Assembly: GCA_964016885.1 (NCBI GenBank)
Contig: OZ024747.1
Coordinates: forward strand, 22,134,001-22,198,000
Direction: 5' to 3'
Length of the DNA: 64,000 nt
Origin: Eledone cirrhosa
Taxonomy: Eukaryota
Every line of letters begins with the position of its first letter. The stretch's first letter is position 1. The notes below the pieces were generated by a model, which was not told where the DNA came from, ran no database searches, and saw only the letters and a list, made by a program, of their open reading frames with translations. The translations under genes were made by a program, and so were the position numbers. Positions 24,365 through 64,000 of this stretch are shown here, one piece after another.

Positions 24365-24418
<54 letters not shown>

Positions 24419-24780: not shown

Positions 24781-24866
<86 letters not shown>

Positions 24867-35850: not shown

Positions 35851-36315
35851 AGTTTTGTTTCATAATGGGTATTTTGTCCCATAAAAACAGGCAGTTCTGG
35901 ACAGATTGGTATCAAAAGGGATAAGCAAATAAGAGGAATATTTCTCTCAGATAAGAGTCTAGTATATTGCAGATATCAATCCAAGATGTTCTGGTAATTA
36001 CAGCTAGGTAAAGTGAATCATGTAAAAGTGAAGTGTACTCAGTATCATAGTTACTAAGGGGCAGCTCCTTGATATGTATTATGTTATTTGGGAGAGGTTG
36101 TTATTTTCAAACTCAAGGACCTCTCCAAGTGGCACAGACTCTATCTATGGCACTGAGTGTTTTCTTTTAAGGCTTGACAAAACGCATACAGTAGGTATGT
36201 ATTCACATTCCATGAAGTTTGTAACTCAATACCCAATATTCAGCCATTTTACCTCTAATACCTTTCTACACAGGCTGCCATGTCTTTCACATCATAGATG
36301 ACATGCATATATATC

Positions 36316-36371
<56 letters not shown>

Positions 36372-36602
36372 AAGTGTCCCAAAAAGTGTATACACACATT
36401 TATTAGAATGCCGTTGAAGTGTGTACTCTCATATATACATTTATATATATATACATGTATATATTAGAGAACATTATGACATGATTAAAGTAACCTAGTA
36501 ACCTGTTCTGTTAGGTTTTATTACCTCAATTGTAAACATTACTAGCATGAAGTGAACTAGTTCCCATAACACCAACATAACAGTAACATATTATAGTATA
36601 TT

Positions 36603-39483: not shown

Positions 39484-39698
39484 TTAACTCATACTGCAAT
39501 GATTTAGCAGAAAATATCTAAAAGATTTTTAAATTCAAATTTTTTTTAGTATCTTTGCCAGTAGACAGAATGTTATGAAAATGTTCAGTAAACTAGAGAG
39601 TTTAAATTTCAATGTGAAGCAGTTATAGCCACTGTTTTGTACTTTTCAAAAATGTCTTGTTAATGTGGTTTCATGTGGCACAGGATGGTAAGAGTTAA
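39484..39698. mobile_element. Third TTAA MITE family (TIR TTAACTCTTAACATCCTG); copies at ~39833-40052 (inverted), ~42684-42890 and ~46886-47144
   Basis: Shared aatgatttagcagaaaatatctaaaa and gcggtttcatgtggcacaggatg(t/g)taagagttaa segments. Confidence 0.7.
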
Positions 39699-41640
39699 TG
39701 ACTAAAAGAGTTGATATTTTCTCCATATCACTACTTCTTGTTTTTCACCACAGTCCGAAATTGTTTTAAGCATGAGACCAATACACTCCTCCCCCTACAA
39801 GCTGCAATTAAACACTTAAAGTAACTTTTGTTCCTAACATCCTGTGCCGCATGAAACCGCATTAGTAAGATATTTTTGAAAAATATCAAAACTGCACTGT
39901 GGCTGCATCACATTAAAAATTGAAGTCTTCACTTTAATACTGTAAATTTTCACTATGATCTGTCCATTAGTAACGATACTAATTAACATTTGAATCGGCA
40001 AACCTATGTTTAGATATTTTCTCCTAAATCATTACAGGATGTTAAGAATTAAATACTTTGTGTATTGTTTTCACTTTGTCAAAAGTGATCTACAGATTGA
40101 TGGTCTTGAAAGAGGAAACTTAGTTTAGCCATGCTATTTATATATTCCAGTAATGGGTAAACTGTGGCCTGCATGTCACATGTAGCCTGTGCCCCACATG
40201 CAGCTTATTTGGCTTTCTGAGTGGCACGCCCAATTTCAAAATTGCCTTGAATTGTTTAGTAGTGAGGCCCGCCTTATGATGAGTCATATCCAATGCTACC
40301 CACTGCTTGAACAAGTTTGCCCATGCTTAGAAACTCTTCTAATCCCTTTTATCACTAACAGAACACCAGCTTGGTCATCCTGTTGGAATATATATATTGA
40401 TCAATATTACTATGAACTGGGGTTATTTTGCTAACTGGACTGTTAACACCAATAATCAATATATCATATGTTATCTATGGCTGTCTGTCATATTTCTATA
40501 TACATGTGTGTGTGTGTGTGTTATTCAGTGCATGTCTCTGTGTGTGTTATTGTCTATGTCTGTGTTTGTTATTGTGTGAGAAGTAATGTGTGTGTATGAG
40601 AAATGACATACATGTTTATGTGGTAGTGTTTGTGTTTTTGAATGAAATGATATATTTCTGTGTTTTAAATAAATAATGTGAATTTAAAAGGGAGAAAATA
40701 AAGTGGCTTGGTTATGTAACACAACACCATAACATCCCAGCTCTAGCAAATAGGGTTTGCATAGGCAATATTAGTATTGATGACATGATAAATATATTCT
40801 GTAAAGTAATTGGTGATAGGAAGGGTATTTAGCTGCAGGAGGACTCTTCAGCCACGTCAAAGAGATGACGACTTCTCTGGTGTTGATGATATGGTAAACA
40901 CACTCAGTACACCCTGTAAAGTGGTTGGTGATAGGCAGGGTATCCAGATATAGAAAACTTGCCAAACTAAGAGTCAAGAGGACTTTTAAACTTTGAAATC
41001 ACTGCATGACATATTTACCATAAGCTGGTTCATGCCTCAGGAGTGAAATTGGGTTGATAGAAACATCTGCCCTGAGCATTCTTATTTATTCGGAGTGGCT
41101 GCTCTCTTAGACTGGTTGCTTTCACTATGGCTTCCAGAGCGTACATCTATCCCATACAGGAAATTTTACAATATTCATGAGCCTTTCGCTTCCTCTTCCC
41201 CTGGCTATCTTTACATGAAACAAAACAAAAACCCCTAAGTAAACATGTTTAGACACATATGCATATGCACAAATAAAATCATGCTTATATGTATATATAT
41301 GCAAACTCATATATGCATGCATGTACCCTCAAATATATAAATGTACATGCACATAAAGACTCAGTCTTGCTTAACCATTAATACATACATATCCATATAT
41401 ATGTATTCATACATGCAAGCTCAAATATTTTTATACTAAATGTTTAATAAGATGAAATAGGTGATCAATATTGAATGTTTTATGTTTGAAATATAATTGT
41501 AATTGATCTAAACACAATATTCTAAATATTTTATTTAATCATTCTTCCACAGAGATACCCTCTCTGGAATTTCTTCCTTACCTACATTGCTGATTTTACT
41601 ATTTGTTCCTTGGTCAGCCATGATCAAGCATATCTATAAT

Positions 41641-41858
41641 GGTTTCTTATATAGGCACAAGGCCAGCATTTTTTGGGGGAGGGGAAAGTCGATTAAATCG
41701 ACCCCAGTGTGTGACTGGTACTTTATTTTATCGATTCTATAAGGATGAAAGGCAAAGTTAACCTCGGCGGGATTTGAACTCAGATCATAAAGGGCCGTAA
41801 CTCTATGCTGCAAAGCATGGTGTCTGACCCTCTACCAATACTGCCAATCCACTGCCCT
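41641..41858 (-). mobile_element. Full-length abundant SINE (long-tail subfamily)
   Basis: TSD tatctataat. Confidence 0.9.
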
Positions 41859-42008
41859 ATCTATAATCAAAGGCATTCCACCCTGTTTTTTATTCAATGA
41901 AATTTTCTTTAAATTATGTTAGTTCCTCCCTATCCCTATTTTTTCCCATGGACAGGAGTCTACAGTTGTTCAAATTGAAGATTACCACATTCATTACATT
42001 ATTCTGAA

Positions 42009-42226
42009 AGGGCAGGGGATTGGCAGTATCGGTAGAGGGTCGGTCGCCATGCATTGCAGCGTAGAGTTTCGGCCGTTTATGATCTGAGTTCAAATCCCAC
42101 CGAGGTTAACTTTGCCTTTCATCCTTACGGGGTCGATAAAATAAAGTACCAGTCACGCACTGGTATCGATTTAATCGACTTTCCCCTGCCTCAAAATTGC
42201 TGGCCTTGTGCCTATATAAGAAACGA
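42009..42226 (+). mobile_element. Full-length abundant SINE (long-tail subfamily)
   Basis: TSD attattctgaaag; A box tggcagtatcgg and B box gagttcaaatcc. Confidence 0.9.
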
Positions 42227-42464
42227 TTATTCTGAAAGGACAATGTCTGAAAAAGGTTACAGGCAATATGCTTCCTCCTCAGAAACATAATCTTCATTTC
42301 CCTTTCTTGATTTTGCATACATATTCATATGTTAGTATAGGTTTGACTTTTCTGCAAATTCAGATATTTGCATATGTTGTTTGTTAGATCATCTGTGTAT
42401 TTTACAGTTGTATGTTCTTCTCACTGCTTGATCACTTCCTCTTTGAAGTTGAAGCTACAATAAT

Positions 42465-42650
42465 TGTTTCTACTTTAGGCACAAGGCCAGCAAATACCCA
42501 GTGCATTACTGGTACTTTATTTTATCGACCCCGTAAGGATGAAAGGCAAAGTCAACCTCGGCGGGATTTGAACTCAGATTGTAAAGGGACGTAACTATGC
42601 TGGAAAGCATGGCGTCCGACCCTCTACTGATACTGCCAATCCACCGCCCT
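42465..42650 (-). mobile_element. Full-length abundant SINE (short-tail subfamily)
   Basis: TSD gttgaagctacaataat. Confidence 0.9.
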
Positions 42651-43053
42651 TAACCGTTGAAGCTACAATAATGTCCACCTATTTTAATTCTTAACATCCT
42701 GTAATGATTTAGCAGAAAATATCTAAAAAATGTTTGATAATTCAAATGTTGTGAATGAGAGATTGTGAAAATTTGCAGTATTAGAGAAAAGACTTTAAAT
42801 TTTAATGTCATGCAGTCATAGTGTTGTTTTGTACTTTTCACAGAAATCTTGCTAATGCGGTTCCATGTGGTACATGGTGTTAAAAGTTAATAAGGTCAAA
42901 GTGAGACGGGTGCCACTTGCTGTATTTGAACCTATGGCTTCTTTACCAATAGTTCAACATCTCAAAATTATTTGAGTTTGTAAAATTCCAACTATAATCA
43001 TAATTCTATGGCTGCTTTCTTCTATACTGGCAAGAATTAGCAAAGGATTGTTG

Positions 43054-43101
<48 letters not shown>

Positions 43102-44638
43102 ATGTGCAAGACCAAAATTATGAGCACAGAGTTTGTGTATTGGCCTTGTGCCAGCTAATTTCTTGCTTGTGTGTGTGTTTATGTATGTAGGTATGTACTA
43201 CCTGGTCTCCTAGTCAAAGTAGGTTAGATTGTACTACTACTACAGCAACTCAACTACTATTACTACTATTTTGATGGCTTTCCCAAGCAGTCACCCATCT
43301 AGCTACCTGCCTTAACTTTAAAACAATTTAGCAGAAGGAAATTATGTGTTTTTAGCACCAGTTGCTGTAGCTAGTTACCATGTTATTTAAAGCATAGATT
43401 AGAAGGAACGTTCCAAGTATTATTTGTATATATGTATATTATTTGGGAGGCAGGGGTGGGAGAGAGTAATGTTACAGAACTAGACAAGAATAGTGTTTCT
43501 TGATGTATTGTATTTAGATTATTTGGGTTAAGTTCTACAGCAACAGGAAGAGATTTCATGAATTAGCTCTTCACTAGCAAGCATGATCAAGAGAGATGGA
43601 GCCAGTTGTTATCATTGAAACATTAACTCTTTTCATACCAAACTGCCTAAAACAGCCCCTGGTTCTATTAACACAAAGAATATTTTTTTATATATTTGCC
43701 TAAAAACCCTCCATCTTTATTTTAAGTAAGAACTTTGTAAAGTTATGTTTCAAATACCTAATTAGTAAGAAAGTTAGTTCTATTACTAAATATTTTCCAT
43801 CATAATTTTATGTAAGAAGCTTGTTATGTTTCATTCACCAGATTAATAATGAGAAAGTTATTTGCATTACTAAATCTTTCCAAATTCTTACTTATTTGAA
43901 AATCATATGCAATATCTTTTAGAAATATGATAATGTAAGGGGTAACCCACTAGCAAACTTGATTTGAAAGATGAGCCTGTTATTATCACTGAATCATTAA
44001 CTAGAATAAAGCAAGTTATAAAAGAATGGTGTGTAAAAGAACTTTGTTCCAGAAAGTTATTAAATCATTGTTATTAAATATTATTAAATCATTCCAAATG
44101 CATGATTATTTTTAAAATTTTGGGGAAATCAAAAGCATTTTTTAAAAATTATTATTAAAAATATGGTAATGAAATGGGTAACAGATCTTAGAATGACTGA
44201 GAATATGCAGATTTTAGATTTTTTTTTAATTGAAGGATATTCAGATTAGGTGATTTCCAATATTGATTAGTTTAGTGGGTAACATCAGTATCAATACTAA
44301 CTAGCTGAAAATACTTGGCTGTATTTAGTCTCTCTTGTCAATTATTGAGAGACTATGACATGTTTTTACAATCATTTCATTTAAACAAAAGACCTTTGTT
44401 TATTCCAGCGGGTAACTTTTTAATACTTAGTAGAATATATATTTATATTATAAAGAAGGTCATCTGACGTCAAGCTTTTCATTTACAAAAAAATTCATAT
44501 CCTTTTATATAATCCTCCAGTTTAGTTTATTGCAAGAATATCACTGTTGCTAATTTAAAGTGTTTATTGATTAGTCCACTCTTCTGAAGTTAAATTATTA
44601 TTGCATTAATTAATCTGGCATTTGTATTCAATAATAAT

Positions 44639-44932
44639 TGCTTCTACTTTTGGCACAAGGCCAGTAATTACCCCAGTGCATTACTGGTACTTTATTTTAT
44701 CAACCCCGTAAGGATGAAAGGCAAAGTTAACCTTGGCAGAATTTGAACTCGGGTCATAAAGGGCTGTAACTCTGTTACAAAGCATGGCGTCCGACCCTCT
44801 ACCGATACTGCCAATCCAATTCAATAATAATTGTTTCTACATTTGGCACAAGGCCAGCAAATACCCAGTGTATTACTGGTACTTTATTTTATCGACCCCG
44901 AAAGGATGAAAGGCAAAGTTAACCTCGGCAGG
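44639..44932 (-). mobile_element. Two abundant-SINE copies in tandem at one target
   Basis: Copies at 44639-44817 and 44832-44932, separated and flanked by three copies of attcaataataat. Confidence 0.85.
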
Positions 44933-45004
44933 TTATTCAATAATAATAAGAGTTTGTAAGCCTTATTGACTTGTACAAATCCTAGGTGACTAGAATCCTT
45001 CCTT

Positions 45005-45270
45005 GTGATGATAAAAAAACAAAAACTTTCCTGGTACAGTCATGTACCCTGCCATGCTCCCTGTCTAAAACCATCCTTCAGAACACAGTTGAGGGAGGAC
45101 AAAGAAGAGGCAAAGAAAATCTTTGATTGTCAACATTAAGGACTGGACAGGTCACAACACTGCAAACCTTCTATGCATGATGGTGTATAGAAACTATTGA
45201 CAAAAGCTGACTACAAAAGTATCTTGAGTAATCCCCCAACAACTGGCTGTACGAGTTGTGAGAACTTGAT
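45005..45270 (+). mobile_element. Degraded RTE-BovB-like LINE C-terminus
   Basis: KKQKLSWYSHV...LSKTILQNTVEGGQRRG...NIKDWTG. Confidence 0.65.
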
Positions 45271-47584
45271 GAGGGAGATTGACTTGAATTTCTGGGAATA
45301 GATATTTATAAAAAGCTCAGTTTCACTTGGTTTATGAAGTGTATTTAAGTCAGTTGAAACATTCTAAGCAGAGAGCTTCTACATGATCTCTCAACCTGTA
45401 AGAAACAGTTGCCAAATTCCCCTTTAAATCACACCCTACTACCTTAGAAGTGTTTTAAGGCCATCTTTAATGCTAAAGCAGTGGTTAGACTCGTGAGCCC
45501 CATGACAAGCTTCTCCACTTTTCCCTATCATCTTTATCCATATCTTTCTTGGTATTCTCTTCCTTTACTTATTGCATTATGTAGTCATAGATATACTGTA
45601 TCTGACAAAAAAGTGAAAGACCAAATGGTTTTGCTTAGAACACCTTTGACCATATGTCTGTTAGTTTAGGGCTCACCAAGATCTTCACAACAATGAATGA
45701 TTTGACAATACTAATGGATAGAAAGTTCTAGAGTATAGCTAATGTAACTAGAAAGGCAGAAGAAACCTGTATATACATAGAAGTTTAGCTCATTATATTT
45801 GAGTTAAGATAAACTACTTGGGGAAATACTCTTTCAACAAAATATTTCTTTTTAAATTGTTGGAAATGTTAAATTTAAAAAATAAGGTGGAAATAGTGAT
45901 TTGAAGAAATAATACAGTAAGAGAAATCGTGATAATTATAGCTTATAGAATAAGAAAATATATATGCAAATATAGGCAGCGAATTGGCAGTCATTAGAAT
46001 GTCGGATAAATTGCTTTATGATATTTGTTCTGGCTCTCTGTTCTCTGAGTTCAAATCCCACTGAGGTCAACTTTGCTTTTCATCCTTTCAAAGTTGTTAA
46101 AAAAAACTACCAGTCTAGATGGATTCTTCCTCTATATCTCTTTCTCATTTCCCCTCTCTCTCATCATCATCATCATCATCATCATCGTTTAACGTCCGTG
46201 TTCCATGCTTGCATGGGTTTGGACGGGAGTTTTCCCACTTGAGGCAAGAGTGGTTGTCTTGCTCGCATAGGACTGTTTGGCGGGTTTTCTACAGTTGGAT
46301 GCCCTTCCTAACACCAACCACATTTACAGTGTGGGGCTGGGAGGTTTTTACCGTGTTGCCTACACGTCCACATTACAGCGTGGACTGTCTGGCAGGTTTT
46401 CTACAGTTGGATGCCCTTCCTAACACCAACCACATTTACAGTGTGGGACTGGGAGGTTTTTACCGTGTTGCCTAACTCTCTCATTTCTATCTTTCTCTGG
46501 AAGAAATCTGCTGTACTCAGGCCTGGAGAAGGATGGACTCCACCAGGCTTTAAATGCCCAAGAAACACAGCATATCAATACAGCACCCCTACGACTCTAT
46601 CAGTAGTTACAGGACCATACATACATATGCAAATATAGAGAAATGGAGGAGAAATAAACAGGAATAGAGGAGCTAGAAGCTTTTATATATTTACTTTGAG
46701 GCTTCATATTTCTGACTCCAAATTCTGCTGAAGTCAGTTTTTCCCTTTCATCATTTTCAATGTTGATAAAATAACTACAAATATTATATAAAGGTCAACT
46801 CATTTAATTATATTCTTGCTTTGAAAAATATTGACCTTAACTAAATATGGGGAGCTTGTAACTAGAACGCATGTCTAGATTGACATTAACTCTTAATGTC
46901 CTGTACCATATGAAACCGATTTAAGAAAACATATTTGAAAAGTTACCCATGTTAGCGTGGAAGATGGACATTAAACAATGATGATGATAACAAAGCAGCA
47001 ATATGACTGCATCACATTGAAAATTTAAGTGTTTAGTGTAATATTGCAAATTTTCAGAATCTGTCTATTAGTAAAAATATAACATTTGAACTAACTTGTT
47101 TCTAGATATTTTCTCCTAAATCATTACAGAATGTTAAGAGTTAAAATAATCATTTAGTTCACAATAATTTAGCCATTTATGAAGATACTATAAACATTTA
47201 AATTAACAAACATTTTTAGATATTTTCTGCTAAATCAATACAAGATGTGAAGGATGCTGGCTGTCATTAGTTTTCTTCATCAATGATTCAAAATAACTCA
47301 TATACTTAGCAGAGTGGTCTGTGTGTGCCCTTGGTCATATATTAGGTATTTTAGGCTATTTTGGAGAGTGGGGTGAGTCAGATGAATCAAATTGGGTCAC
47401 AACCACACAATTTAGGTGTCTGTGTGTATGCATTTGTATAAAAATGGATTCCTTACTGTTTTATGTGTTAAAGGTATATGATTCATTGTTGAACAAGGTT
47501 CTATAAGTGCAAACTGTAACATTCAATGGCTTACAGAATGTTTCATTCATATGATTAATCTCTAGATTGTTCCCACTGATTCAG

Positions 47585-48540
47585 TTAGACTGGAAATATT
47601 GTTTACTGTAGTTTTGTTAGGGCTGAGTAACAAGTAGAACTATATTAGACTGGAAATGTTGTTTACTGTAGTTTTGTTAGGGCTGAGTAACAGGTAGAAC
47701 TATATTAGACTGGAAATGTTGTTACTGTAGTTTTGTTAGGGCTGAGTAACAAGTAGAACTATATTAGACTGGAAATATTGTTTACTCTAGTTTTGTTAGG
47801 GCTGAGTAACAGGTAGAACTATATTAGACTGGAAATATTGTTTACTGTAGTTTTGTTAGGGCTGAGTAACAAGTAGAACTATATTAGACTGGAAATATTG
47901 TTTACTGTAGTTTTGTTAGGGCTGAGTAACAGGTAGAACTATATTAGACTGGAAATATTGTTTACTCTAGTTTTGTTAGGGCTGAGTAACAAGTAGAACT
48001 ATATTAGACTGGAAATGTTGTTTACTGTAGTTTTGTTAGGGCTGAGTAACAGGTAGAACTATATTAGACTGGAAATATTGTTTACTGTAGTTTTGTTAGG
48101 GCTGAGTAACAGGTAGAACTATATTAGACTGGAAATGTTGTTTACTCTAGTTTTGTTAGGGCTGAGTAACAGGTAGAACTATATTAGACTGGAAATGTTG
48201 TTTACTGTAGTTTTGTTAGGGCTGAGTAACAAGTAGAACTATATTAGACTGGAAATATTGTTTACTGTAGTTTTGTTAGGGCTGAGTAACAAGTAGAACT
48301 ATATTAGACTGGAAATGTTGTTTACTGTAGTTTTGTTAGGGCTGAGTAACAGGTAGAACTATATTAGACTGGAAATATTGTTTACTCTAGTTTTGTTAGG
48401 GCTGAGTAACAGGTAGAACTATATTAGACTGGAAATATTGTTTACTCTAGTTTTGTTAGGGCTGAGTAACAGGTAGAACTATATTAGACTGGAAATGTTG
48501 TTTACTGTAGTTTTGTTAGGGCTGAGTAACAGGTAGAACT
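47585..48540. repeat. 60-bp minisatellite, ~16 copies
   Basis: ttagactggaaat(a/g)ttgtttact(g/c)tagttttgttagggctgagtaaca(a/g)gtagaactata, head to tail with no spacers. Confidence 0.97.
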
Positions 48541-50635
48541 AAATGCTGGACAAAAGTTTTATTGCTACTTTTTCCTTTAAAAGTTGTTAGAACTAGCCTA
48601 GTCATTAGAATGTGGTGTTAAATATCATAAAAATTATTACTGCTAGCCTAATCATTAGCTTGTCAAATTCATCTCATCACTGATTCACTTTATTTTGTGA
48701 CTAGGTATCCTGTGGAGGAACAGCTTATTACTGTTGATATCAAGGTGGCTCTGCAATTAATGACTGTTTCATTATAGTACAGTTCTTGGTTTACATCATC
48801 TCATAGCTTGGCCTCTTATCCAAGGGGAGAGAGATCTCAGATGATGGAGGCCTTGAAAATGTTTATAAGCCCCCAATAGACTTACTGACAACTTCTAAAA
48901 AAAAAAAAAAAGTTCAACTCTAAACCTAAAATCCCACCCATTTTAACACCTTTTGTAGGATTCATTCTATTGAAAATAGAAAAAAAGTCTGTCCCAAGCC
49001 CAGAACTTAACCCAATTTCATTAGTGTACAAGATGCCAGTCCATCACAGCTGCTGGTACTCATTTTCAGCTGAGTTGACAGGAGCAATGTGAAATGAAAT
49101 GTTTTTCTCAGTAACACATGCCATCCGGTCAATCTGACCCCTAGCAACTCTACCAATTCGTCATCTTCCTCTTTCTTTGATTATCTTATAAAACCCTACA
49201 GCATACAGTCATCCTTATAGGACATGGAGATCCTTCTGTTCTTATGTTAGTGAGTGATCTTATATTGAATTGGTTGTTGCCAATTCATATTTCCACAGTC
49301 TTAACATAAAACTGTGAAATGAGAAGCCTTGCACACAAAAGAATATTTAAATCTTCAATATTTTAAGCAAATCTTAAGTGTCACAGCTGGTTGAGTGAAT
49401 AGTTGGTTGATGGTCGATATGTTTTTATCCTGCTACTAGAGTTGAGTTTCATTGCAATTGTGTCTATAGTTAACCTTTTAATTTCAATTTTTCTCCCATC
49501 CATCTCGCTATCAACTAAAATTACTTACAAGTCAACAAGGAAGCTTATATAGAGTTTGAAACAAAACAAAAAAGACTGGCTGCTCATGTATGATAGACCT
49601 TTGGTCATTGCTTTTCTGGGTCAGTGCTAGCCTGAGGTTAAACAACAACAATAACTGATCAAGACCCACAAATTGACCTACTGTTGCCTTTTCATAAAAA
49701 CCTGGCCCAAACCAACCCTGGTTTTATGGAAACAAAATCACCCATTTTAAAGGGTTCCTGATTAAATTAAAATCTTCCAACATTATTTTATATGAGTTCC
49801 CGCCGAGGTTAACTTTACCTTTCATCCTTACGGGGTCGATAAAATAAAGTACCAGTAATGTACTGGGTAATTGCTGGCCTTGTGCCTAAAGTAGAAACAA
49901 TTATTTTATATGAGTACAATTTGTTACTACTTTTTTAATTATGAAATAATTTTAGTTAATCCTCTTAATACTTCATTAATTAATTAAAATAGAGTATATT
50001 GTTAAATTATTACTTTCTTAATTATGAAATTATTTTAGTAAATCCCTCAAAATACTTCATTAATTAATTGAAATAGAATATATTTCATTAGAAATATGGT
50101 GATGAAAGAGTTATCCAACAGAATCAGCTGGGTTTAGTAGTTATCTTAAGAGGGTTTGTTGCTTGAAGATCTTCTGCATATCCTGTTTGGAATTTTTGGT
50201 CAAGTGCCGACTGATTTCTTTCTAACATGTTCTCTGGCATCTATTATAGACCAGTTATAGAAAGTATGGACTTGGCAGCAGCAAAATCAAATATTTGTTA
50301 CCTACTTTATACTGAACACATACATATACACACTTATACACACATATTCATGTGTGTGTAGGTGTATGCAAGCTTATATCTCTATAGATTCACTCTACTA
50401 CTATCTTGTATATTTTGTAATTATGATGAGAAAGAACTAGTTTTCTTTGTTTACAAGGTGATAGCAATGTTTAGATGATTCATAGATAATCTTCCTGTAT
50501 TTGAAGTAATTCTTTCTGACCAGAATGAACCAGTCTTTCATTTGGTGTAACATATGTTTTCCATAGCTGTGTAAGAAAATAAATTTAAACTGATCCAATA
50601 TGGACCATATGTGCATGTGAGTATATATATATATT

Positions 50636-50677
<42 letters not shown>

Positions 50678-50702
50678 GTATATATATATTTGTGTGTATG
50701 TA

Positions 50703-50734
<32 letters not shown>

Positions 50735-51682
50735 AACAAGATTTGTTCAAAGAAAAATACTCAGGACAGGTGGTAACTCAGCTGTCATACCTGATTTAAA
50801 CAAAAATGTTACTATTGAGCTTTGCAGTCCTATTTTTAATCTGTTATGGTTATTTGAAAGTTGTAGTTGGCTGAGTTCATGTGATGCTGAATTATCAGCC
50901 TAATGGGCAGTTAGTTGGTTTCCAGTCCATATCTTGGCATTAGTACCCCCTAAGGAAAATAGTGATATGATGTGAATAGCCCAGAAACATTCTATGTAAT
51001 GCAACCTCAAAGGAAACCAACTAAACTTAAGCAAGTGTGAAACATAACAACAAACAATTTCCTGATATTCATAGCAAATATACCTAATTATTGATTTCTA
51101 ACTCAAACACACAGACATAAATCTAGTAGGAAGGAGTGTAGTCATGGGTCAAAGGTGGTAGTCATGGGTCAAAGGTGGTAGTGTTTCAGTGAATAAGACT
51201 TTGAAGATTTGTTAGAGAGCCTTTTTGGAGCAATGCAGTCTAGAATTGTTGTGTACATTTTAGCAGCAGCAGCAGCCCTGTCTTAGATGTGGGAACAGTA
51301 TTCCATTATGAGACTTAGTTGGGGGTAGAGACAGATCCAATCAGCAGAATCGATGGAAACTAGGGGTGGTTTCTGATGAAAGGGTCATCCTGAAATGTTA
51401 AATTTCTCTTCTTCCTCATGGCAAAACAATTTATCATTCTGTTAATGTGTATGGGGCTGAGCATTCTACAGACACATGTACTCTTAACATAATTCTAAGA
51501 GGGATTCAGTGAGACACAATGTGTAACAAAGCTGGCCCTTTCAAATACAGGTACATTTCATCTGACTGGCTTCCAAACAGTTTCCACCAGTCCACTTTGA
51601 TACTTGCAGTGGGATCAAACTCATGATTGCAGTGAAGCTTCTTATTTGTATATCTTCTGCATGAATTCATGTAAGTGTAGCA

Positions 51683-51759
<77 letters not shown>

Positions 51760-51936
51760 TATGCCAGGTTAGTATTACTCTTGGTGTGGCATGAAAACAG
51801 TTTTCACCCCTTTCTGTAAGTCTATATATGTATGTGTGTGTGTGTGTGTGTGTTGTGCATATCGTGCACTGTACATATTATGCAACGTGTGTATGTGTTG
51901 TGCACATCATGCACTGTACATATTATGTAATACATG

Positions 51937-52273
51937 TGGAGGCACATGGCTTAGTGGTTAGAGCATTGGCCTTGCAATCGAAAGGTTGTGAGTTCAATTC
52001 TCAGACCGGGTGGTGTGTTGTTTCCTTGAGCAAGACACTTTATTTCACATTGCTCCAGTTTACTCAGCTGTAGAAATGAGATGCTAGGGACTGAGGTCCT
52101 TATCATTCCACTGCAAAGTGGTCGTGTAGGTGCCACGGCAAAAAAGCACCCAGCACTCACTGTAAATGAGGTTGGTGTTAGGAAGGGCATCCAGCTGTAG
52201 AAATCAAGCCAGTATCAGTTCCCGTCCCACCCTTGCAAGCAGGGAAAAGCGGACGTAAAATGAAATGATGATG
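51937..52273 (+). mobile_element. tRNA-derived CORE-like SINE with an RTE-derived 3' tail; near-identical copy at 59178-59500 and a partial copy at 58905-59175
   Basis: Head tggcttagtggttagagc...gagttcaattc. Central ccttgagcaagacactt...ccagtttactcagctgtagaaatg resembles the MIR/CORE domain. The tail matches the 3' end of the LINE at 36603-36658. Confidence 0.85.
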
Positions 52274-52777
52274 TATATGTGTTGTGTACATCAGGCAACA
52301 TGTGTGAGGTGTATTGTTTCTTTGTGAGGAGTTGGCAGCTATTTAGTTTTTGAGCCGGAAGTGTATGTTATGAAGCCTAGCGATAATTATCTTCTATCAT
52401 AAATAGTCTCTACTTATTATAATGATTATGATAATGACTGTTAATATAAACACTCAATTCATTACAGTGAACAGATGTGTCTCATGACTCCAATGAATCA
52501 AGATCCTCAAAGAAATTTTGTAAGGGCAGAATGAGACAGCTTTTGAAGCCCAGGGGTGGGACTGGGAAAATTCAAGTAGGTGAAGGGATATTTTGAGGAT
52601 GGATATTAGAAATTCACAGGCCCTTCTTTTCATTTCTGGGCCTTGGACCTCAGACACGAGGGGATGCTGAAAAATTTCTGGGTTGATCGCTGCTCCAGAG
52701 ACCTGGTTGGAGGCCCAACTATCCGAGTTCTTTTCAACTTCATTAATATGCCCCTTCTCTTCTTGTTAAAAGATGAA

Positions 52778-52816
<39 letters not shown>

Positions 52817-53799
52817 GGTAGTAGTAGTAGTAGTAGTAGTAGTGGTGCCACGATAAAATGCATCTGGTACATGCTGTGAAGTGGTGAACATTAGGAAGGG
52901 CATCTCGCCATAGAAACCATGTCAGAATGGAATGCATGAGTGAGACACAGTCATCTGACGTGTCTAACCTCAGAGCCTGACAAACCATCTAACCTGTGCA
53001 AGTGATGATATACATTTGCAGATAAAACAGATCTCACAAAACAACAAAAATCTATTAAATTTGCCATTGTCATTATGGCAATACCAACTCTTACTTCACT
53101 TCCAATTGTTATATTTGTATTCAATTGAAGTTTTTAAAAAGGCCATTTGAGTAATATAATTATATGACTAGCTTGTACAGTTGATTTTTGTTATTGTTGT
53201 TGCTTGTATATTTAATAATTTCAATTGGACATAATTAATTTATCTAAATAATTGTATTGTCACTCAAAAGATTTATAGAAAATACTGTTGGAAATTATTC
53301 AGGTTAAGTTTGTTTATAATCGAACAGAATGCTTTGCGGTATTTATTTCAACTCTCTTCTCTCTGAATTCAAATCCCACTGAGGTCAAGTTTGCCTTTCA
53401 TTCATTCGAGATCAACAAAAAAAGTACCAGTCATGTACTTGGGTCAATTCTTTCTCTCTATCTCTTTCTCCCTTCCATTCTCCCACTCTCTATCCAAAGA
53501 AATCTGCTGTATTTAAACCTGGAGAGGAGATGGGTTCCTCTATGTTTTAAAAACTGCCCTAGAAATGCTGTATGTTAATACAACACACATACAACTCCCT
53601 AAGGAGTTACGGGATTATACATGCATATCTAGAATTACATCCAATGTGTGCTTCACTTTTTAAAATTACAGGGTATGATTTGAAAGAGATTTGGTTGGTA
53701 TTTCTAGTCAGTTGAGTGACAACTTTGAAGCTCCTTCTTGGTGCATTTATTAAACATATTTTCTACATGGAGGTGTAATTAGTCTTAAATGTGCTGGTA

Positions 53800-56700
53800 G
53801 TTGTGATTGTAGTAATGGTGGTGGTGTGATTGTGTTAGTGGTGGTGGTGCTGCTGCTGTTAGTAGTGTTATTTGTGATGGTAGTGCTGTTAGTAGTATTG
53901 TGGTAGTGGTGGTAGTGATGGTAGTGGTGGTCTTAGTAGTGTTGATTGGGATAATAGTGGTGTTAGTAGTGTTGTGGTGGTGTTAGTGTTAATTGCGGTA
54001 GTGGTAGTAGTGGTGGTCTTAGTAATGTTGATTGTGATAGTAGTGGTGTTAGTAGTGTTGTGGTTATGGTGGTGCTATTAGTAGTGTTGATTGTGATAGT
54101 AGTGGTGTTAGTAGTATTGTGGTTGTGATGGTGGTATTAGTAGTGTTGTGGTTGTGGTGATGGTGATGGTCTTAGTAGTGTTAGGTGATGGTATTATTAG
54201 TGTTATTTGTGGTGGTAGTGGTGTTAAATGTTGTGATTGTGGTAGTGGCAGTGGTCTTAGTAGTGTTATTTGTGGTAGTAGTGATGGTGTTAGTAGTGTT
54301 GTTTGTGGTGGTAGTGGTGTTGCTGTTTAGTAGTGTTATTTGTGGTGGTAGTGGTGTTGCTGTTTAGTAGTGTTATTTGTGGTGGTAGTGGAGTTAATAG
54401 TGTTGTGGTAGTGGTGTTGCTGTTTAGTAGTGTTATTTGTGGTGGTAGTGGTGTTAATAGTGTTGTGGTAGTGGTGTTGCTGTTTAGTAGTGTTATTTGT
54501 GGTGGTAGTGGTGTTAATAGTGTTGTGGTAGTGGTGTTGCTGTTTAGTAGTGTTATTTGTGGTGGTAGTGGTGTTGCTGTTTAGTAGTGTTATTTGTGGT
54601 GGTAGTGGTGTTGCTGTTTAGTAGTGTTATTTGTGGTGGTAGTGGTGTTAATAGTGTTGTGGTAGTGGTGTTGCTGTTTAGTAGTGGTATTTGTGGTGGT
54701 AGTGGAGTTAATAGTGTTGTGGTAGTGGTGTTGCTGTTTAGTAGTGTTATTTGTGGTGGTAGTGGTGTTAATAGTGTTGTGGTAGTGGTGTTGCTGTTTA
54801 GTAGTGGTATTTGTGGTGGTAGTGGAGTTAATAGTGTTGTGGTAGTAGTGTTGCTGTTTAGTAGTGTTATTTGTGGTGGTAGTGGTGTTAATAGTGTTGT
54901 GGTAGTGGTGTTGCTGTTTAGTAGTGGTATTTGTGGTGGTAGTGGTGTTAATAGTGTTGTGGTAGTGGTGTTGCTGTTTAGTAGTGGTATTTGTGGTGGT
55001 AGTGGAGTTAATAGTGTTGTGGTAGTAGTGTTGCTGTTTAGTAGTGTTATTTGTGGTGGTAGTGGAGTTAATAGTGTTGTGGTAGTGGTGTTGCTGTTTA
55101 GTAGTGTTATTTGTGGTGGTAGTGGTGTTGCTGTTTAGTAGTGTTATTTGTGGTGGTAGTGGTGTTAATAGTGTTGTGGTAGTGGTGTTGCTGTTAGTGT
55201 TATTTGTGGTGGTAGTGGTGTTAATAGTGTTGTGGTAGTGGTATTGCTGTTTAGTAGTGGTATTTGTGGTGGTAGTGGTATTTGTGGTGGTAGTGGAGTT
55301 AATAGTGTTGTGGTAGTAGTGTTGCTGTTAGTGTTATTTGTGGTGGTAGTGGTGTTAATAGTGTTGTGGTAGTGGTGTTGCTGTTAGTGTTATTTGTGGT
55401 GGTAGTGGTGTTAATAGTGTTGTGGTAGTGGTGTTGCTGTTTAGTTGTGTTATTTGTGGTGGTAGTGGTATTTGTGGTGGTAGTGGAGTTAATAGTGTTG
55501 TGGTAGTAGTGTTGCTGTTTAGTAGTGTTATTTGTGGTGGTAGTGGTGTTAATAGTGTTGTGGTAGTGGTGTTGCTGTTTAGTAGTGGTATTTGTGGTGG
55601 TAGTGGTGTTAATAGTGTTGTGGTAGTGGTGTTGCTGTTTAGTAGTGGTATTTGTGGTGGTAGTGGTGTTAATAGTGTTGTGGTAGTGGTGTTAATAGTG
55701 TTGTGGTAGTGGTGTTGCTGTTTAGTAGTGTTATTTGTGGTGGTAGTGGAGTTAATAGTGTTGTGGTAGTGGTGTTGCTGTTTAGTAGTGTTATTTGGTG
55801 TGGTAGTGGTGTTAACAGTGTTGTGGTAGTGGTGTTGCTGTTTAGTAGTGGTATTTGTGGTGGTAGTGGTGTTAATAGTGTTGTGGTAGTGGTGTTGCTG
55901 TTTAGTAGTGTTATTTGTGGTGGTAGTGGTGTTGCTGTTTAGTAGTGTTATTTGTGGTGGTAGTGGTGTTAATAGTGTTGTGGTAGTGGTGTTGCTGTTT
56001 AGTAGTGTTATTTGTGGTGGTAGTGGTGTTAATAGTGTTGTGGTAGTGGTGTTGCTGTTTAGTAGTGGTATTTGTGGTGGTAGTGGAGTTAATAGTGTTG
56101 TGGTAGTAGTGTTGCTGTTTAGTAGTGTTATTTGTGGTGGTAGTGGTGTTAATAGTGTTGTGGTAGTGGTGTTGCTGTTTAGTAGTGTTATTTGTGGTGG
56201 TAGTGGTGTTAATAGTGTTGTGGTAGTAGTGTTGCTGTTTAGTAGTGTTATTTGTGGTGGTAGTGGTGTTAATAGTGTTGTGGTAGTGGTGTTGCTGTTT
56301 AGTAGTGGTATTTGTGGTGGTAGTGGTGTTAATAGTGTTGTGGTAGTGGTGTTGCTGTTTAGTAGTGTTATTTGTGGTGGTAGTGGTGTTAATAGTGTTG
56401 TGGTAGTAGTGTTGCTGTTTAGTAGTGTTATTTGTGGTGGTAGTGGTGTTAATAGTGTTGTGGTAGTGGTATTGCTGTTTAGTAGTGTTATTTGTGGTGG
56501 TAGTGGTGTTAATAGTGTTGTGGTAGTGGTGTTGCTGTTTAGTAGTGTTATTTGTGGTGGTAGTGGTGTTAATAGTGTTGTGGTAGTGGTGTTGCTGTTT
56601 AGTAGTGTTATTTGTGGTGGTAGTGGTGTTAATAGTGTTGTGGTATTGCTGTTTAGTAGTGTTATTTGTGGTGGTAGTGGTGTTAATAGTGTTGTGGTAG

Positions 56701-57182
56701 TGGTGTTGCTGTTTAGTAGTTATTTGTGGTGGTAGTGGTGTTAATAGTGTTGTGGTAGTGGTGTTGCTGTTTAGTAGTGTTATTTGTGGTGGTAGTGGTG
56801 TTAATAGTGTTGTGGTAGTGGTGTTGCTGTTTAGTAGTGTTATTTGTGGTGGTAGTGGTGTTAATAGTGTTGTGGTATTGCTGTTTAGTAGTGTTATTTG
56901 TGGTGGTAGTGGTGTTAATAGTGTTGTGGTAGTGGTGTTGCTGTTTAGTAGTTATTTGTGGTGGTAGTGGTGTTAATAGTGTTGTGGTAGTGGTGTTGCT
57001 GTTTAGTAGTGTTATTTGTGGTGGTAGTGGTGTTAATAGTGTTGTGGTAGTGGTGTTGCTGTTTAGTAGTGTTATTTGTGGTGGTAGTGGTGTTGCTGTT
57101 TAGTACTGTTATTTGTGGTGGTAGTGGTGTTAATAGTGTTGTGGTAGTGGTGTTGCTGTTTAGTAGTGTTATTTGTGGTGGT
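53800..57182. repeat. G/T-rich minisatellite (60-bp major unit, 37-bp deletion variant), ~3.4 kb
   Basis: gtagtggtgttgctgtttagtagtgttatttgtggtggtagtggtgttaatagtgttgtg repeated. Degenerate at the left edge, homogeneous from ~54310. Confidence 0.97.
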
Positions 57183-57349
57183 ACAACAAAACACCAGAAT
57201 GAATTACCAGCCACCCAACAGTAGCAGTACAAAGTCAGTGTTAGTGGTGGGGGATGGTTTAGGTTTGTTTTGAAACACAATGACATTTAACCGAGATCTC
57301 TGTAAGAAGTTAATTAATGGCTACTGCTTGCCCTTTTACTTCACCTTTT

Positions 57350-57720
57350 TTGTGTTTACATATTGTTACCACCACCACCATCCTTCCTTCTACTACCTTT
57401 ACATAGTGTCACCACCACCATCTCCTTTACATATTGTCACTCACTCCACCACAACCAACCTCACTTTTACCTTTACATATTGTCACTGCTGCCACCACCC
57501 TCAATTCTACCTTTACATATTGTCACCTCCACCACCACCACCACCATTACCCCCCCCCCCCCTTTCTACTACCTTAACATATTGTCGCCTCCACCACCAC
57601 TACCACCCGCCTTTCTACCTTAACATATTGTCACCTCCACCACTACCACCCTCCCTTCTACCTTTACATATTGTTGCCACCACCACCACCACCACCATCA
57701 TACTCCTTCCTTCTACCATT
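57350..57720. repeat. Degenerate C/A-rich tandem repeat (ctacctttacatattgtca..ccaccacc)
   Basis: About 7 variable-length units. Confidence 0.8.
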
Positions 57721-58085
57721 ACAGGGTTCTTAAAGTAGTCTTACCTGAACCCATCATCAACTCAACTAGTTCCTAGCTCACTCTGCCAGTTACTGTCAGA
57801 TTTTTATCCAAGGGATTGTGATTCGTAAAACACATACACGCACACACACAGTTACATACTCTACCTCTTTCTTCTCCTCTTACTGCCCCCTTATATCTTT
57901 AGTATGAAGTTAACACGAAACCTTTTTTTTTTTTTTTGAAGGAGAGAACTATTCTCTCTCTCTCTCAATATTTCTATAGACTTCATTATATGACAAACTC
58001 CAATTTCCTACCCACACAGTCGTTTTTCTCACTGATTAACGGTATAAGTGTACACTCTAGTTTGTTGGGTTTGTATTTTAATAAT

Positions 58086-58257
58086 TGTTTCTACTTTAGG
58101 CACAAGGCCAGCAATTACCCAGTGCATTACTGGTACTTTATTTTATCGACCCCGTAAGGATGAAAGGCAAAGTAAACCTCGGCGGGATTTGAACTCAGAC
58201 CGTAAAGGGACGTAACTATGCTGGAAAGCATGTCCGACCCTCTACTGATACTGCCAA
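58086..58257 (-). mobile_element. Abundant SINE, short-tail subfamily (others at 49798-49902 +, 61349-61450 - and 63911-64000 -)
   Basis: Near-identical to 42465-42650. Confidence 0.85.
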
Positions 58258-60185
58258 ATACAGACTTAATTAAATTATTGATTGAGAAAATGACTGATCA
58301 GCTTCAATTCATAATTATATATGAATACACACACACACACACATACATACATACATACATACATAAATATATATACATCATCATCATAATTTTACGTCCA
58401 TTTTTCCATATATATATATATATATAATTATATATCAGAGAGAGCGAGAGAGAGAGAGAGAGAGAGGGTCCTTACTTCCCTACATTAACGCCATTCATTC
58501 ATCAACCATTTCACAGAATATACTGAGTTCATTTTATCATGGCACCAACACTAGAGAGGCAATCTGGTCTCCTGCAAAGCTAAACAGTCTTCACTACCCT
58601 ACATTATCTCCATTATTTCAAGATAATTATGTCCAAGAGTATGCTTAGAAACAAGAGAGTATGAATGTGAAGGGAATGCAGAATAATAGGATGGGGGACA
58701 TATGTATATATGCGGAGTGGGGAGACCCAAGATGACTTGGGATGAGGTGATAAAAGCCGACCTTACCCAACTACACCTCTCAAAGTCAATGACACACGAC
58801 CGTGACTTCTGGCGTCACGCAGTAATACAGGGTACCCGACCTCCCATGGGTACATGCTGAAGCATATAAACAATATGCCCCCCCCCCCCCCCCCCACCGC
58901 AAGGTGGTCGTGGAGGTGCCACGGCAAAAAAGCACCCAGCCCACACTGTAAAGTGGACGTGTAGGCGCCACGAAAAAGCACCCAGCACTCACTGTAAATG
59001 AGGTTGGTGTTAGGAAGGGCATCCAGCTGTAGAAATCAAGCCAGAATCAGTTCCTGTATGAGCAAGGCATGGTCAGCCGACCAGACACTGCCCACAACAG
59101 GACAACCCGTCTAACCCATGCTAGCGTGGAAGAACGGACGTAAAACGGTGATGATGATGATGATGATGATGATGATATGGAGGCACATGGCTTAGTGGTT
59201 AGAGCATTGGCCTTGCAATCGAAAGGTTGTGAGTTCAATTCTCAGACCAGGTGATGTGTTGTTTCCTTGAGCAAGACACTTTATTTCACATTGCTCCAGT
59301 TTACTCAGCTGTAGAAATGAGATGATAGGGACTGGGGTCCATATCATTCCACTGCAAAAGTGGACGTGTAGGCGCCACGGAAAAAAGCACCCAGCACTCA
59401 CTGTAAATGAGGTTGGTGTTAGGAAGGGCATCCAGCTGTAGAAATCAAGCCAGAATTAGTTCCCGTCCCACCAGGGAAAAAGCAGACATAAAATGAAAAA
59501 TGAAAAAAAAATGAAATATCAAGGGTGATGACACACGACCGTGACCTCTGGCACCACACAGTTATATGTAGGCTACAAAGCTTATTAGTTATGTAATAAA
59601 CAACATAAGATAATTATTTCATTTACCAGTGGTTTCTTGAAGGCAGATGTTATGCAAAAAAGTAAACAGAAACAACAAAGTAAACATATTACAGTAAAAA
59701 AAAATATAATAGTTTAATGTTTGATATAATATAGGAAAAGTCTTTACGTTTTGGGCACTAGTCCTTCATCAGAAGAGTGAATGAGAAATAAGAGGGAATA
59801 GGAAGATAGTGAGAAGAAGGAACACAATTTTTTTTTTTAAACCCATTTTTCCATTCTTGTATAAGTTGAATGGGTCTTTCTCAATACAGCTTCACTCCAC
59901 TCTTTACATTCTTTCAAGCTAATATACTTTCTATTCATATACACATAAAGACACACATCTTTAAATAATCTTCTTAGAATATGTATCAAAGCTACAGGAT
60001 TTGTTCTGATTTATTCATATTTTATAAACATGTAGATATATTTTTTTGTTAAAAATCAAATGGTAATGTATGATCTTATTATTCACATTGATACTGTTGT
60101 TATTGTTGTTAAGTAATATATATCAATGAGATAAATTCAATATCTCACCTAACAGTGGTCTCAACTTCCTTCCGATAACATGCAG

Positions 60186-60203
60186 CATTGGAGATTTTCT
60201 CAG
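60186..60203 (+). CDS. shot: 18-nt in-frame spectraplakin microexon (HWRFSQ), plectin exon 2-alpha-like
   Basis: cttccttccgataacatgcag|CAT TGG AGA TTT TCT CAG|gtcagt, phase 0-0, compatible with the 23978 donor. Plectin 2-alpha encodes HWRAE at the same position after KHL.K. Branch-like cctaac at 60148. Confidence 0.72.
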
Positions 60204-63129
60204 GTCAGTGTTTCAGGAAGCATGGTTTTTTATTGCTGTTGTTGTTGCTGTTGTTGTTGTGATGGTTAAGCATTATTGTCATTATTGGTTGTTTTTTGAA
60301 TTCTTGTAAATTTAAGTTTATTTTGCAGCATTTACTTAGATTAAAAAAATGACTTTAAAAAAAATATTTTTTATAATTTATCTTGCCCCTTAACATTAAA
60401 AATAATGTTTTGTTTGGCTTTTAAATATTTTCATTTTAAATTTAATTCTTTCTTGTGATTTTCATTCCACAAGCAATTGATATGCTTTGTATTGTGTATG
60501 TATGTATTTATATGTGCTCATGCATGTGTCTTGCTCCTGCTTATACTTTTGTGTGTGTGTGTTTTTATCAAGTTCTATATGTGTTTTTATCAAGTTCTAT
60601 ATATGGCCCATGGTTTAAAGGTTGTGAATATTTCATATTTGTTATTGATTTTTCTTTCCATTGTTATCAGTTTACTAATTCAATAAGATATTCTCTAATA
60701 ATTTAGCATGTTTAGCCTAAACTGTAGACAGAGATGATCAAAACAGACTGTTTCTAAATATTTGGTTTTTACACCTAAGTTCTTTAAATGTCACTAAACC
60801 TGATGTTATTTTGTTAATATTGTGGACTCCTATAAGAATATACTGGGGTAAACTTAACATATAATCATGCTCCTTGCTAAAAGGACAGCTTTGTGCCCAA
60901 GAAATAGAAATCCTTATTATTGACTTGACAAGATAATTATTTTACCAAATTAAATGTTATAAATGTTTCACCTAATATCCATAGATTTTTTGGTAAACTT
61001 TATTATTTGCCATTCCCATTATTTTTTAAAGTATAATGACTACCAAATACATGCTGTGATCATTTTATTTGAATATACATTTTGCTTGCAATAAAAACTA
61101 ACCCTATGCCTATCTAAAGAAACATTATTACAATTGTTAACTGTATTATAGTGGTAGCAAGAATGTTTACAATTTCTACTTTGTTTCAAAGCAAGCTTGT
61201 AACTTGATTTTTAACTCTAGATTAAGAAAGTTTTACTTGAGGTACCAATATTCATGGAAACTTCCTGTTCCCCATCCCCTAATAAATTAAAGACCATTTT
61301 AAAGCTTCATAACTGTTGTAACAAATTATTACTGTGGTAGTAATAATAGTTTCTACGTTAGGCACAAGGCCAGCAATTACCCAGTGCATTACTGGTACTT
61401 TATTTTATCGACCCCGTAAGGATGAAAGGCAAAGTCAACCTCGGCGGGATTAGAAGGTGGTGAATTGGCAGAATCATTAAAGCATCAGCCAGAATGCTTT
61501 GCTTCATTTAGCTACATCACTTTATGTTTTGAGTTTAAATACAGCTGATGTCCACTTCGCCTTTCATCCTTTTGGTGTAAATGAAATAAGTCCCAGTATA
61601 ATCAACTTTCCCCTTTCCCAAAATTGTTGGCCTTGTGCCAGTGTTAAGAATAATTGATACTATGGTAGTGGACTGGGGCAATAGACAGTAATTGGCCTTA
61701 TATGATGTAATATCTAGTTCAATGTTTCATGTTTCTTAGCTTAAATCTCATGAATGGCATGAAATAAGTACCACTGAATGAAATACTAGACTAATGGTTA
61801 TACTGCAACATGAAATAAAGTGTCTTGCTCAAGTACACAAAATGTCATGCAGCCCCAGCAATCAAACATACATGATTGTCTGCACAAAACCCTAACACTC
61901 TGACCATAATCTACTCAGTTGGAAAAATTGAGTTGTACCAACACTGGTGCTAAGCTATGTGGCCCTTCACTTTTCCCTTGGATAACATCAGTGGTGTGGA
62001 GAGGGAAGAGTAGCATTTATGGGCGACTGTTTGTCTTCCACAAAACACCTAACCCAGGCATTACATCCCGGAGAGAAACTTTTCAGGTGCAACCTTATGG
62101 TTAGTCATGGCCAAGGGGGACCCTCCCCTCTTTGTTATACAATATTACTACAGTCATTGTGTTGTGACCATAATTCTTGTTTCAATTTACCTGACTGTCA
62201 AAGTAGGTTTCATTTAATCTTCATGACTCAGTAATTATAATTAGTAGTAGCAGGGTCATCCAGCTGTAAAAAACATTTCTCTAACAAAAGAACATGGCTA
62301 TTTTCTTGAGAGAGAAAAGGAAAAAAAACACCCCCCCCCCCCCCAAAAAAAAAATCTAACCCATTCCAAAATTACCTTCTGTTTTCCAAAATTACCTTCT
62401 GCCTCATCAAAAGAAATCAATAATGAATGTGTTCATAAAAATCAGTCATCAATCACTCTTTTATGTGAATAATTTCCTTACTTCATTGCAAGTCCTAAAT
62501 TTCTCTTGAAAATGGGGTGGGGGAACAAGGTCAATTGGTTTAAATTAAATATCTGAGGGAAGGAGAATCATGAAAATTCTAAAGCCTCTTGAAGCAGAGT
62601 ATTATATTTGAACTAATAAAATACACATAATAACTATAATCATTATAAAAGAAGAAAAGGAAACACATTCCAGAGATTCCGGAAAAATTGAGTAAAAATA
62701 TTTTAGATTTTAAATTTCCAAGAATTTCTTATTCTTTTCATGACTCAGTTTTGTTTTTTGCTGACAGTAATGAAGGACAAGGACATTTCATGACACTTCA
62801 TATATTTTAGTGAATAGTCATCATCATTGTTTAATGTCCTTTCCCTGCAAGCAAGGGTTGGACGAGTTATCAACAGGCCAGACTGGTGGTACTCAAGCAG
62901 AGCTGCTGACACCTGTTATTTATTTTTTTAAATTTTCATATAATTGCTTGGAAATAATGGTTCTTTGCAACTATTCAAGTTCAGCCATTGTGTCTGGCCC
63001 CTGAACAAGGTATATAAATATGTTTGCCTGACTGACTGAGAACAGCTTTCATTCCTATTTCACATTTGTATGGTCAACAGCAAGAAGGGTAGTTCACTGT
63101 AAATTGGATCTGTCTTGTAGCAGTATTTG

Positions 63130-63515
63130 GTTACTGATTAGCAATGTGCGGTTAGCAATGTGTGGTTAGCAACGTGCGGTTAGCAGTGTCTGGTTAGCAA
63201 TACGTGTTACCAGCATCTGGTTAACGATGTCTGGTTAACAATGTCTGGTTAGCAATGTGTGGTTAGCAGTGTGTAGTTGGCAGTGTCTGGTTAACAATGT
63301 CTGGTTAACAATGTCTGGTTAACAATGTCTGGTTAACAATGTCTGGTCAACAATATCTGGTCAACAATGTCTGGTTAACAATGTCTGGTTAACAATGTCT
63401 GGTTAACAATGTCTGGTTAACAATGTCTGGTCAGCAATGTGTGGTTAGCAGTATGTGGTTAGCAGTGTCTGGTTAGCAATGTGTGCTTAGCAGTGTCTAG
63501 TTAGGAATGTGTGGT
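63130..63515. repeat. 14-bp minisatellite (ctggttaacaatgt) bracketed by a diverged ~35-bp direct repeat
   Basis: Homogeneous core at ~63290-63430. tggtcaacagcaa...actgtaaatt occurs at 63071-63105 and 63513-63547. Confidence 0.9.
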
Positions 63516-64000
63516 CAACAGCAAAAAGAGGCACTTTACTGTAAATTATACTAATATGATAGCAATGTCTAAATGTAAATAACCACTCTACTGTTGTTAT
63601 CTGGAGAAAATAGACAACATATGGGTTGACTATATAGGAATTTAATGGCTATCAATGTATGATAATAAAGTCAGATTACTACCATTGTGTTCTGTCTAGT
63701 GAAATCACTGCTTACCTTACTAAATAATCTTTTCTAATTTATGCATAAGGCCAGCAATTTAGGGTAAGGGATAAGTCGACCTCAGTACATAACTGGTTCT
63801 TTATTTTATTAACCCCAGAGAATGTAAAACGTCAGAAGAAATACTTCAAAGTATATCCTCTGATGCTCTAACACTTCTGCCAATCTGCCACCCTCTACCT
63901 TACTAAATAATTGTTTCTACTTTAGGTACAAGGACAGCAATTACCCAGTGCATTACTGGTACTTTATTTTATTGACCCAGTAAGGATGAAAGGCAAAGTT

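Follow-up and report, generated by a model that had tools for sequence, protein, structure and literature searches.

A short optional exon in a spectraplakin gene of the octopus Eledone cirrhosa, a likely homologue of plectin exon 2-alpha

Can an 18-nucleotide (18-nt) segment lying deep within a very long intron be a genuine exon and, if so, from where was it inherited and what does it add to the protein? This question is raised by a spectraplakin gene (shot/plectin/DST/MACF1 family) of the octopus Eledone cirrhosa, part of which is contained in the 64,000-nt stretch OZ024747.1:22134001-22198000 (G000:C7) of its 3.0-Gb genome, hereafter called the window, to which all positions refer unless a contig coordinate is given. 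An initial annotation, made from the sequence alone, proposed that a microexon encoding HWRFSQ is located at 60186..60203 on the forward (+) strand and resembles exon 2-alpha of plectin. The follow-up described here makes it quite probable that 60186-60203 is an in-frame cassette microexon which inserts HWRFSQ after helix A of CH1 in the actin-binding domain, that it and plectin 2-alpha likely go back to one ancestral exon and that it likely tunes actin and microtubule binding in some tissues.

The exon has phase 0 and is bounded by an AG acceptor directly preceded by TGC (tgcag, 60181..60185, +) and by the donor gtcagt (60204..60209, +), which matches the U1 consensus CAG/GTAAGT in 8 of 9 positions. 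A CTAAC motif (60149..60153, +), 34 nt upstream of the exon, is its predicted branch point, and three GCATG motifs on the same strand, candidate Rbfox sites, follow the donor at 60220..60224 (17 nt from the exon end), 60522 and 60706..60710, the second being the core of the sole full Rbfox hexamer among them (TGCATG, 60521..60526, +). These elements, as well as the preservation of the reading frame, are as initially annotated, where the branch-like cctaac had been placed about 35 nt upstream and the exon 36 kb into its intron. A 62-nt exon (23917..23978, +) with plectin and MACF1 as best structure matches encodes helix A of CH1, is the equivalent of plectin exon 2 and ends in KHLLK at phase 0 with the donor gtatgt. 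The next CH1 exon is found beyond the window (G000:C7:22217963-22218052, 90 nt, phase 0) and, because it begins at 22217963, the host intron (23979..64000 and on to G000:C7:22217962, +, as mapped from the flanking exons) is 59,984 nt long, with the HWRFSQ exon 36.2 kb into it and about 24 kb of intron left downstream. The segment is short, a multiple of three, open in frame, delimited by canonical AG/GT ends and placed between phase-matched exons. In the following 200 kb the remainder of CH1 is found, as is CH2, together with exons resembling spectrin repeats and two giant reading frames; the gene encodes tandem CH1-CH2 domains, groups with shot, plectin, DST and MACF1, and the proteins predicted from it are almost the same as their counterparts in Octopus bimaculoides. 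When the E. cirrhosa genome was searched at the DNA level with 601 nt around the exon, it returned, besides the locus, 17 short matches rich in AT, all of them outside the exon.

The strength of these signals was compared with the rest of the host intron, taking as candidates all stop-free stretches of 3-51 nt, in multiples of three, framed by YAG and GT (n=1,502). Donors matching CAG/GTAAGT in at least 7 of 9 positions were found in 10 of these candidates, and the two that reach 8 of 9 both end at 60203, evidencing a single donor site. A His-Trp start follows the acceptor of 60186 alone among all candidates. TGCAG is present at 50 of the 1,950 YAG sites of the intron, and CTAAY (-48 to -18) combined with TGC (-17 to -3) at 11, including the 60186 acceptor. 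The enrichment of GCATG downstream of the exon is marginal: three copies in 510 nt, a size picked after the motifs were known, are equalled by 1.3% of 1,190 intron segments, three copies per 1 kb by 5.9% of 1,180, and the single full TGCATG by 16% of the segments, all of which makes for weak evidence.

The exon had been regarded as hidden and likely missed by annotation, a view that is not supported, as RefSeq already carries it for the related octopus O. bimaculoides, with included as well as skipped isoforms that bear out the proposed alternative use and its conservation in a related cephalopod. Among the ten RefSeq proteins of this species (an older model and the "plectin" isoforms X1-X9, XP_052827041-049, all automated gene models), the identical HWRFSQ stands alone in four (X3, X6, X8 and the older model), a longer insert is present in three (X1, X2, X4) and the exon is skipped in three (X5, X7, X9), so that it is included in either form in 7/10 and skipped in 3/10, an indirect indication for E. 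cirrhosa. Both alternative first exons combine with all three forms. The longer insert, which the initial annotation did not contain, corresponds in E. cirrhosa to an open 48-nt exon (60156..60203, +) that uses an alternative acceptor (AG 60154-60155) directly following CTAAC, 30 nt upstream of the proximal one, and the same donor; it adds ten residues ahead of HWRFSQ. One upstream and one downstream exon are consequently joined in three ways, by skipping or with 6 or 16 residues between them. In the ten-residue extension, 7 residues are identical and 3 differ between E. cirrhosa and O. bimaculoides. The identical HWRFSQ is also present in the abalone Haliotis cracherodii (XP_071119797.1), together with a ten-residue extension that shares 6 residues with that of E. 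cirrhosa and differs in 4; another Haliotis protein skips the exon.

Inserts at this junction were then compared across animals in 447 proteins, collected with three word-seeded searches, a HMMER scan of representatives and three look-ups of clusters. This sample, which includes other CH proteins and near-duplicates, yielded 345 proteins with a score at the junction; the remaining 102 lacked a CH1 start or did not match the pattern. His-Trp directly follows the end of the upstream exon in 31 of the 345, and four more carry the long form. The insert reads HWHYVQ in Priapulus, HWRYLE in spiders, HWKYLK, HWKYMK, HWNYFQ, HWKYSK or HWRYVK in insects and HWKHDE in the acorn worm Saccoglossus, where a skipped twin is also found, while plectins of sharks, teleosts, birds and mammals have HWRAE, HWKAE, HWKVE or HWWVK. 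Stand-alone invertebrate inserts always comprise six residues (octopus, priapulid, a spider, acorn worm). In vertebrates an insert is present in 15 of 53 plectin-type rows, and no His-Trp one was found among 79 DST/MACF1-type rows. In the alignment, PDB 1MB8 and 1SH5 show HWRAE at the same junction and PDB 3F7P lacks the insert, so the proposed match to plectin 2-alpha in position and first residues is borne out. The old age suggested for the exon is likewise supported. In a tree built from 36 selected rows, one spectraplakin/plectin clade (support 97/90) takes in all nine His-Trp carriers as well as the abalone row, spread over its mollusc, ecdysozoan, hemichordate and gnathostome-plectin branches, with spectrin-, actinin- and dystrophin-like outgroups apart; by label count the tree sets His-Trp rows against outgroups, which places a single exon origin outside its reach. 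At the same junction plaice carries HRRGPE, and a cysteine-rich arthropod peptide occurs with or without the His-Trp one.

The closest known system is plectin exon 2-alpha, listed for mouse Plec as MmuEX0035673, a 15-nt exon ahead of a 90-nt exon (PMC8797185, table S2). It shares with the octopus exon the CH1 junction, phase 0, a His-Trp-Arg start, optional use and a 90-nt exon next to it, but it differs in its length, in its last residues, in its short flanking introns (36 kb and 24 kb in octopus), in having no long form in vertebrate rows and in its class, ASE, which in that study denotes alternative exons that are neither eMIC-regulated nor neural; the 36-nt Plec exon that follows it is listed as eMIC-sensitive (PMC8797185). 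In fly shot the same table lists DmeEX0009489, an eMIC-sensitive exon of 18 nt, and, within one intron with it, a neural exon of 60 nt. The 18-nt exon would be the counterpart of the octopus one, as judged by position and length, since a 62-nt exon lies upstream as in octopus and 60 nt fits the 20-residue insert that follows the His-Trp peptide in arthropods; it is placed near the 5' end of shot, where other insects show a His-Trp hexapeptide, and differs in its short introns and in the neighboring 60-nt exon, of which the octopus isoforms show no counterpart. The flanking sizes also agree, upstream between octopus and fly shot (62 nt) and downstream between octopus and mouse Plec (90 nt). The exon itself is hence already known, in RefSeq for the related octopus and through likely counterparts catalogued in fly and mouse. 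The E. cirrhosa exon, at phase 0, is flanked by the exon for helix A and the CH1 exon that comes next and starts with His-Trp and a basic residue, as 2-alpha does, but has 18 nt, like other invertebrate inserts, instead of 15 nt and five residues, on account of which it is likely a homologue of 2-alpha and not 2-alpha in the strict vertebrate sense.

What the insert does may be approached from plectin. Exon 2-alpha is described as enhancing actin binding in a passage of a review (PMC8464768), and 2-alpha together with 3-alpha increased the co-sedimentation with microtubules, to 52.0% and 36.5% for two constructs (PMC7891324); inclusion of 2-alpha in muscle and brain is likewise known for plectin, and further passages on these exons are contained in PMC8391331 and PMC11774597. 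By analogy, a rise in actin binding is slightly favored for the octopus insert, and a similar tuning of the octopus domain may be envisaged on the same grounds. In an otherwise identical pair of AlphaFold models, the last residue of helix A is 57 when the insert is present and 54 when it is absent. His-Trp-Arg is predicted to extend helix A by about one turn, with the remaining residues lengthening the loop to helix B. The open or closed state of CH1-CH2 was dropped from consideration, the two-domain pose of the models being poor.

With regard to the regulation of the exon, a match to SRRM_C, which we take to be the eMIC domain, was detected in the E. cirrhosa genome (29.3 bits vs a cut-off of 27, E 0.004), with a candidate next exon 21 kb on. 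Two pieces resembling a split C-terminal domain of Srrm234 lie 21 kb apart on the reverse strand (G000:C22:28167743-28167880 and about 28146458; loci L023 and L026). According to PMC8797185, eMIC targets carry UGC close to the acceptor, a CUAAY branch point, a long AG exclusion zone and a long UC-rich tract; the first two are present at the 60186 exon, and the pyrimidine fraction between the two AGs is 0.64. Its AG-free zone, in contrast to the long ones of eMIC exons, covers only 30 nt, with the next AG directly 3' of the branch motif. The short form would use CTAAC as its branch point, along with a pyrimidine tract of modest strength and the UGC beside the AG. Chances are even that Srrm234, through its eMIC domain, partly promotes the short form in neurons, and a contribution of Rbfox to inclusion is doubtful.

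The presence of 1,502 formal mini-exon candidates in the host intron could suggest that HWRFSQ is a chance pseudo-exon, but it has the strongest donor of them all and the unique His-Trp start, and the very same peptide occurs in isoforms annotated for two further molluscs, which already refutes this explanation; we regard it as extremely improbable. A different objection concerns descent: unrelated microexons may have been gained separately in one permissive intron, with His-Trp selected each time at the end of helix A. Several observations point in this direction or weaken the case made above in other ways. The vertebrate exon has five codons and the invertebrate one six, and only His-Trp is kept throughout. 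Other lineage-specific inserts arose at the same junction, namely a 20-residue exon in arthropods, CRS in Mytilus, HPSK in Acanthaster and HPCKK in chicken (proteins with other inserts: P0054, P0064, P0085, P0175, P0267, P0053), so that the intron is an insertion hot spot in which convergence would be plausible; recurrent exon gain at one position is, moreover, said to be common across bilaterians in a preprint (bioRxiv 10.64898/2026.09.05.749416). No His-Trp insert was seen in the retrieved nematode, rotifer, flatworm, echinoderm, lamprey, crustacean, annelid, bivalve and cnidarian rows, a weak absence as these are mostly single gene models, and none of the 447 is a Drosophila protein that carries the insert, which leaves the fly exon matched by position and length only. 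Inclusion is inferred from RefSeq models of a different octopus and one abalone, and the AlphaFold models are mediocre (mean pLDDT, the predicted local distance difference test, of 64.9 and 63.5, below 50 at residues 56-59; template modelling (TM) score of about 0.45 to plectin structures). Nevertheless, the same first two residues, Trp among them, recur in molluscs, a priapulid, chelicerates, insects, a hemichordate and gnathostomes, splicing imposes no His codon at an exon start and the stand-alone invertebrate inserts are uniformly of six residues, all of which renders separate gain improbable. One origin, as an ancestral bilaterian exon kept in plectin with five codons and not seen in DST or MACF1, is very probable.

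An exon that is real and old may still be muscle-specific or broadly alternative in octopus and driven by Rbfox or another factor, instead of being a neural eMIC target. The muscle plectin isoform P1d contains 2-alpha (PMC10177080), the mouse exon at the 2-alpha position is classed ASE, neither eMIC-regulated nor neural, and the fly exon is listed as eMIC-sensitive, not eMIC-dependent (PMC8797185); in addition, three GCATG motifs lie downstream in E. cirrhosa, one of them 17 nt from the donor. The UGC beside the AG and the CTAAC branch point do fit the eMIC code and the GCATG enrichment is marginal, so that this alternative is a serious one to which we would give somewhat less than even weight. 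A comparable weight is due to the proposal that the 48-nt variant is no more than a by-product that is put up with, and that its ten additional codons seem conserved solely for containing signals of the short form (branch-point AG, pyrimidine tract, UGCAG). The residues in common overlap these signals (Trp comes after the AG of the branch point, Leu-Pro is rich in pyrimidines and Met-Gln is ATGCAG), 3 of the 10 residues differ already between two octopuses and the pyrimidine tract of the distal acceptor is weak (fraction 0.55); on the other side, the spacing of exactly 30 nt, the open frame and 6 of 10 residues are common to octopus and abalone, and RefSeq models include the long form in both. 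A functional long form of 48 nt is, on this balance, mildly preferred.

If the exon is inherited as a homologue of 2-alpha, it would date back to the last ancestor that protostomes and deuterostomes have in common and would have been shortened later to five codons in plectin. It could then represent one of very few inherited His-Trp microexon switches, confined to plectin among the vertebrate paralogues and with its regulator rewired between lineages, which molluscs turned into a three-state device (0, 6 or 16 residues) maintained in octopus and abalone alike, the long form being encoded in part by what serves the short one as splice signals; for this wider reading we see the arguments as evenly balanced. 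A survey of 20 species that include O. bimaculoides inferred just two bilaterian-ancestral neural exons, in APBB and MADD, and stressed recurrent gain (bioRxiv 10.64898/2026.09.05.749416), against which a peptide start shared from octopus to human plectin is uncommon. The APBB1/2/3 and MADD microexons of that preprint are likewise short, in-frame and conserved between protostomes and deuterostomes, but they were measured as neural-specific across clades, whereas the tissue specificity of the HWRFSQ-type exon seems unconserved (eMIC-sensitive in fly, ASE in mouse); tissue control has seemingly changed while the exon persisted. Since the biochemically studied plectin 2-alpha is hereby tied to a fly exon open to deletion, the function of the insert becomes testable in vivo.

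As for the literature, Plec, Macf1 and short stop are not named in the main text of PMC8797185, nor is the spectraplakin/plectin family in the main text of bioRxiv 10.64898/2026.09.05.749416, whose supplements may list the exon. A review of spectraplakins states that annotated isoforms differ in how long CH1 is and in its sequence (10.1101/122010); 2-alpha is unmentioned in PMC4353693, and PMC3727937 contains only an unrelated mention. Among the matches listed, with the supplements likeliest to hold one not covered, no published statement of 2-alpha counterparts across invertebrate phyla was found, and no published account of the mollusc long form was found among them either.

Other features of the locus deserve a brief description. 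Two alternative first exons precede the helix-A exon in the window, exon A with its coding part at 22258..22357 (+; 33/33 residues identical to O. bimaculoides P0022, donor gtaagt) and exon B at 23653..23731 (+; 23/26 residues identical to O. bimaculoides P0027, donor gtaact). Within the host intron, a 481-codon open frame on the reverse strand (36624-38066) reads, by its motifs, like the reverse transcriptase of a non-LTR retroelement, and long low-complexity tandem arrays at about 54100-57100 give rise to repetitive open frames on both strands. The two giant open frames of the gene, of 4,184 codons (G000:C7:22298072-22310623, +) and 2,546 codons (22320812-22328449, +), are likely large alternative exons. 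A second optional exon, of 45 nt with AG/GT ends, is located between CH1 and CH2 (G000:C7:22235121-22235165, +); 8 of its 15 residues match the insert of O. bimaculoides, so that it is much less conserved than HWRFSQ.

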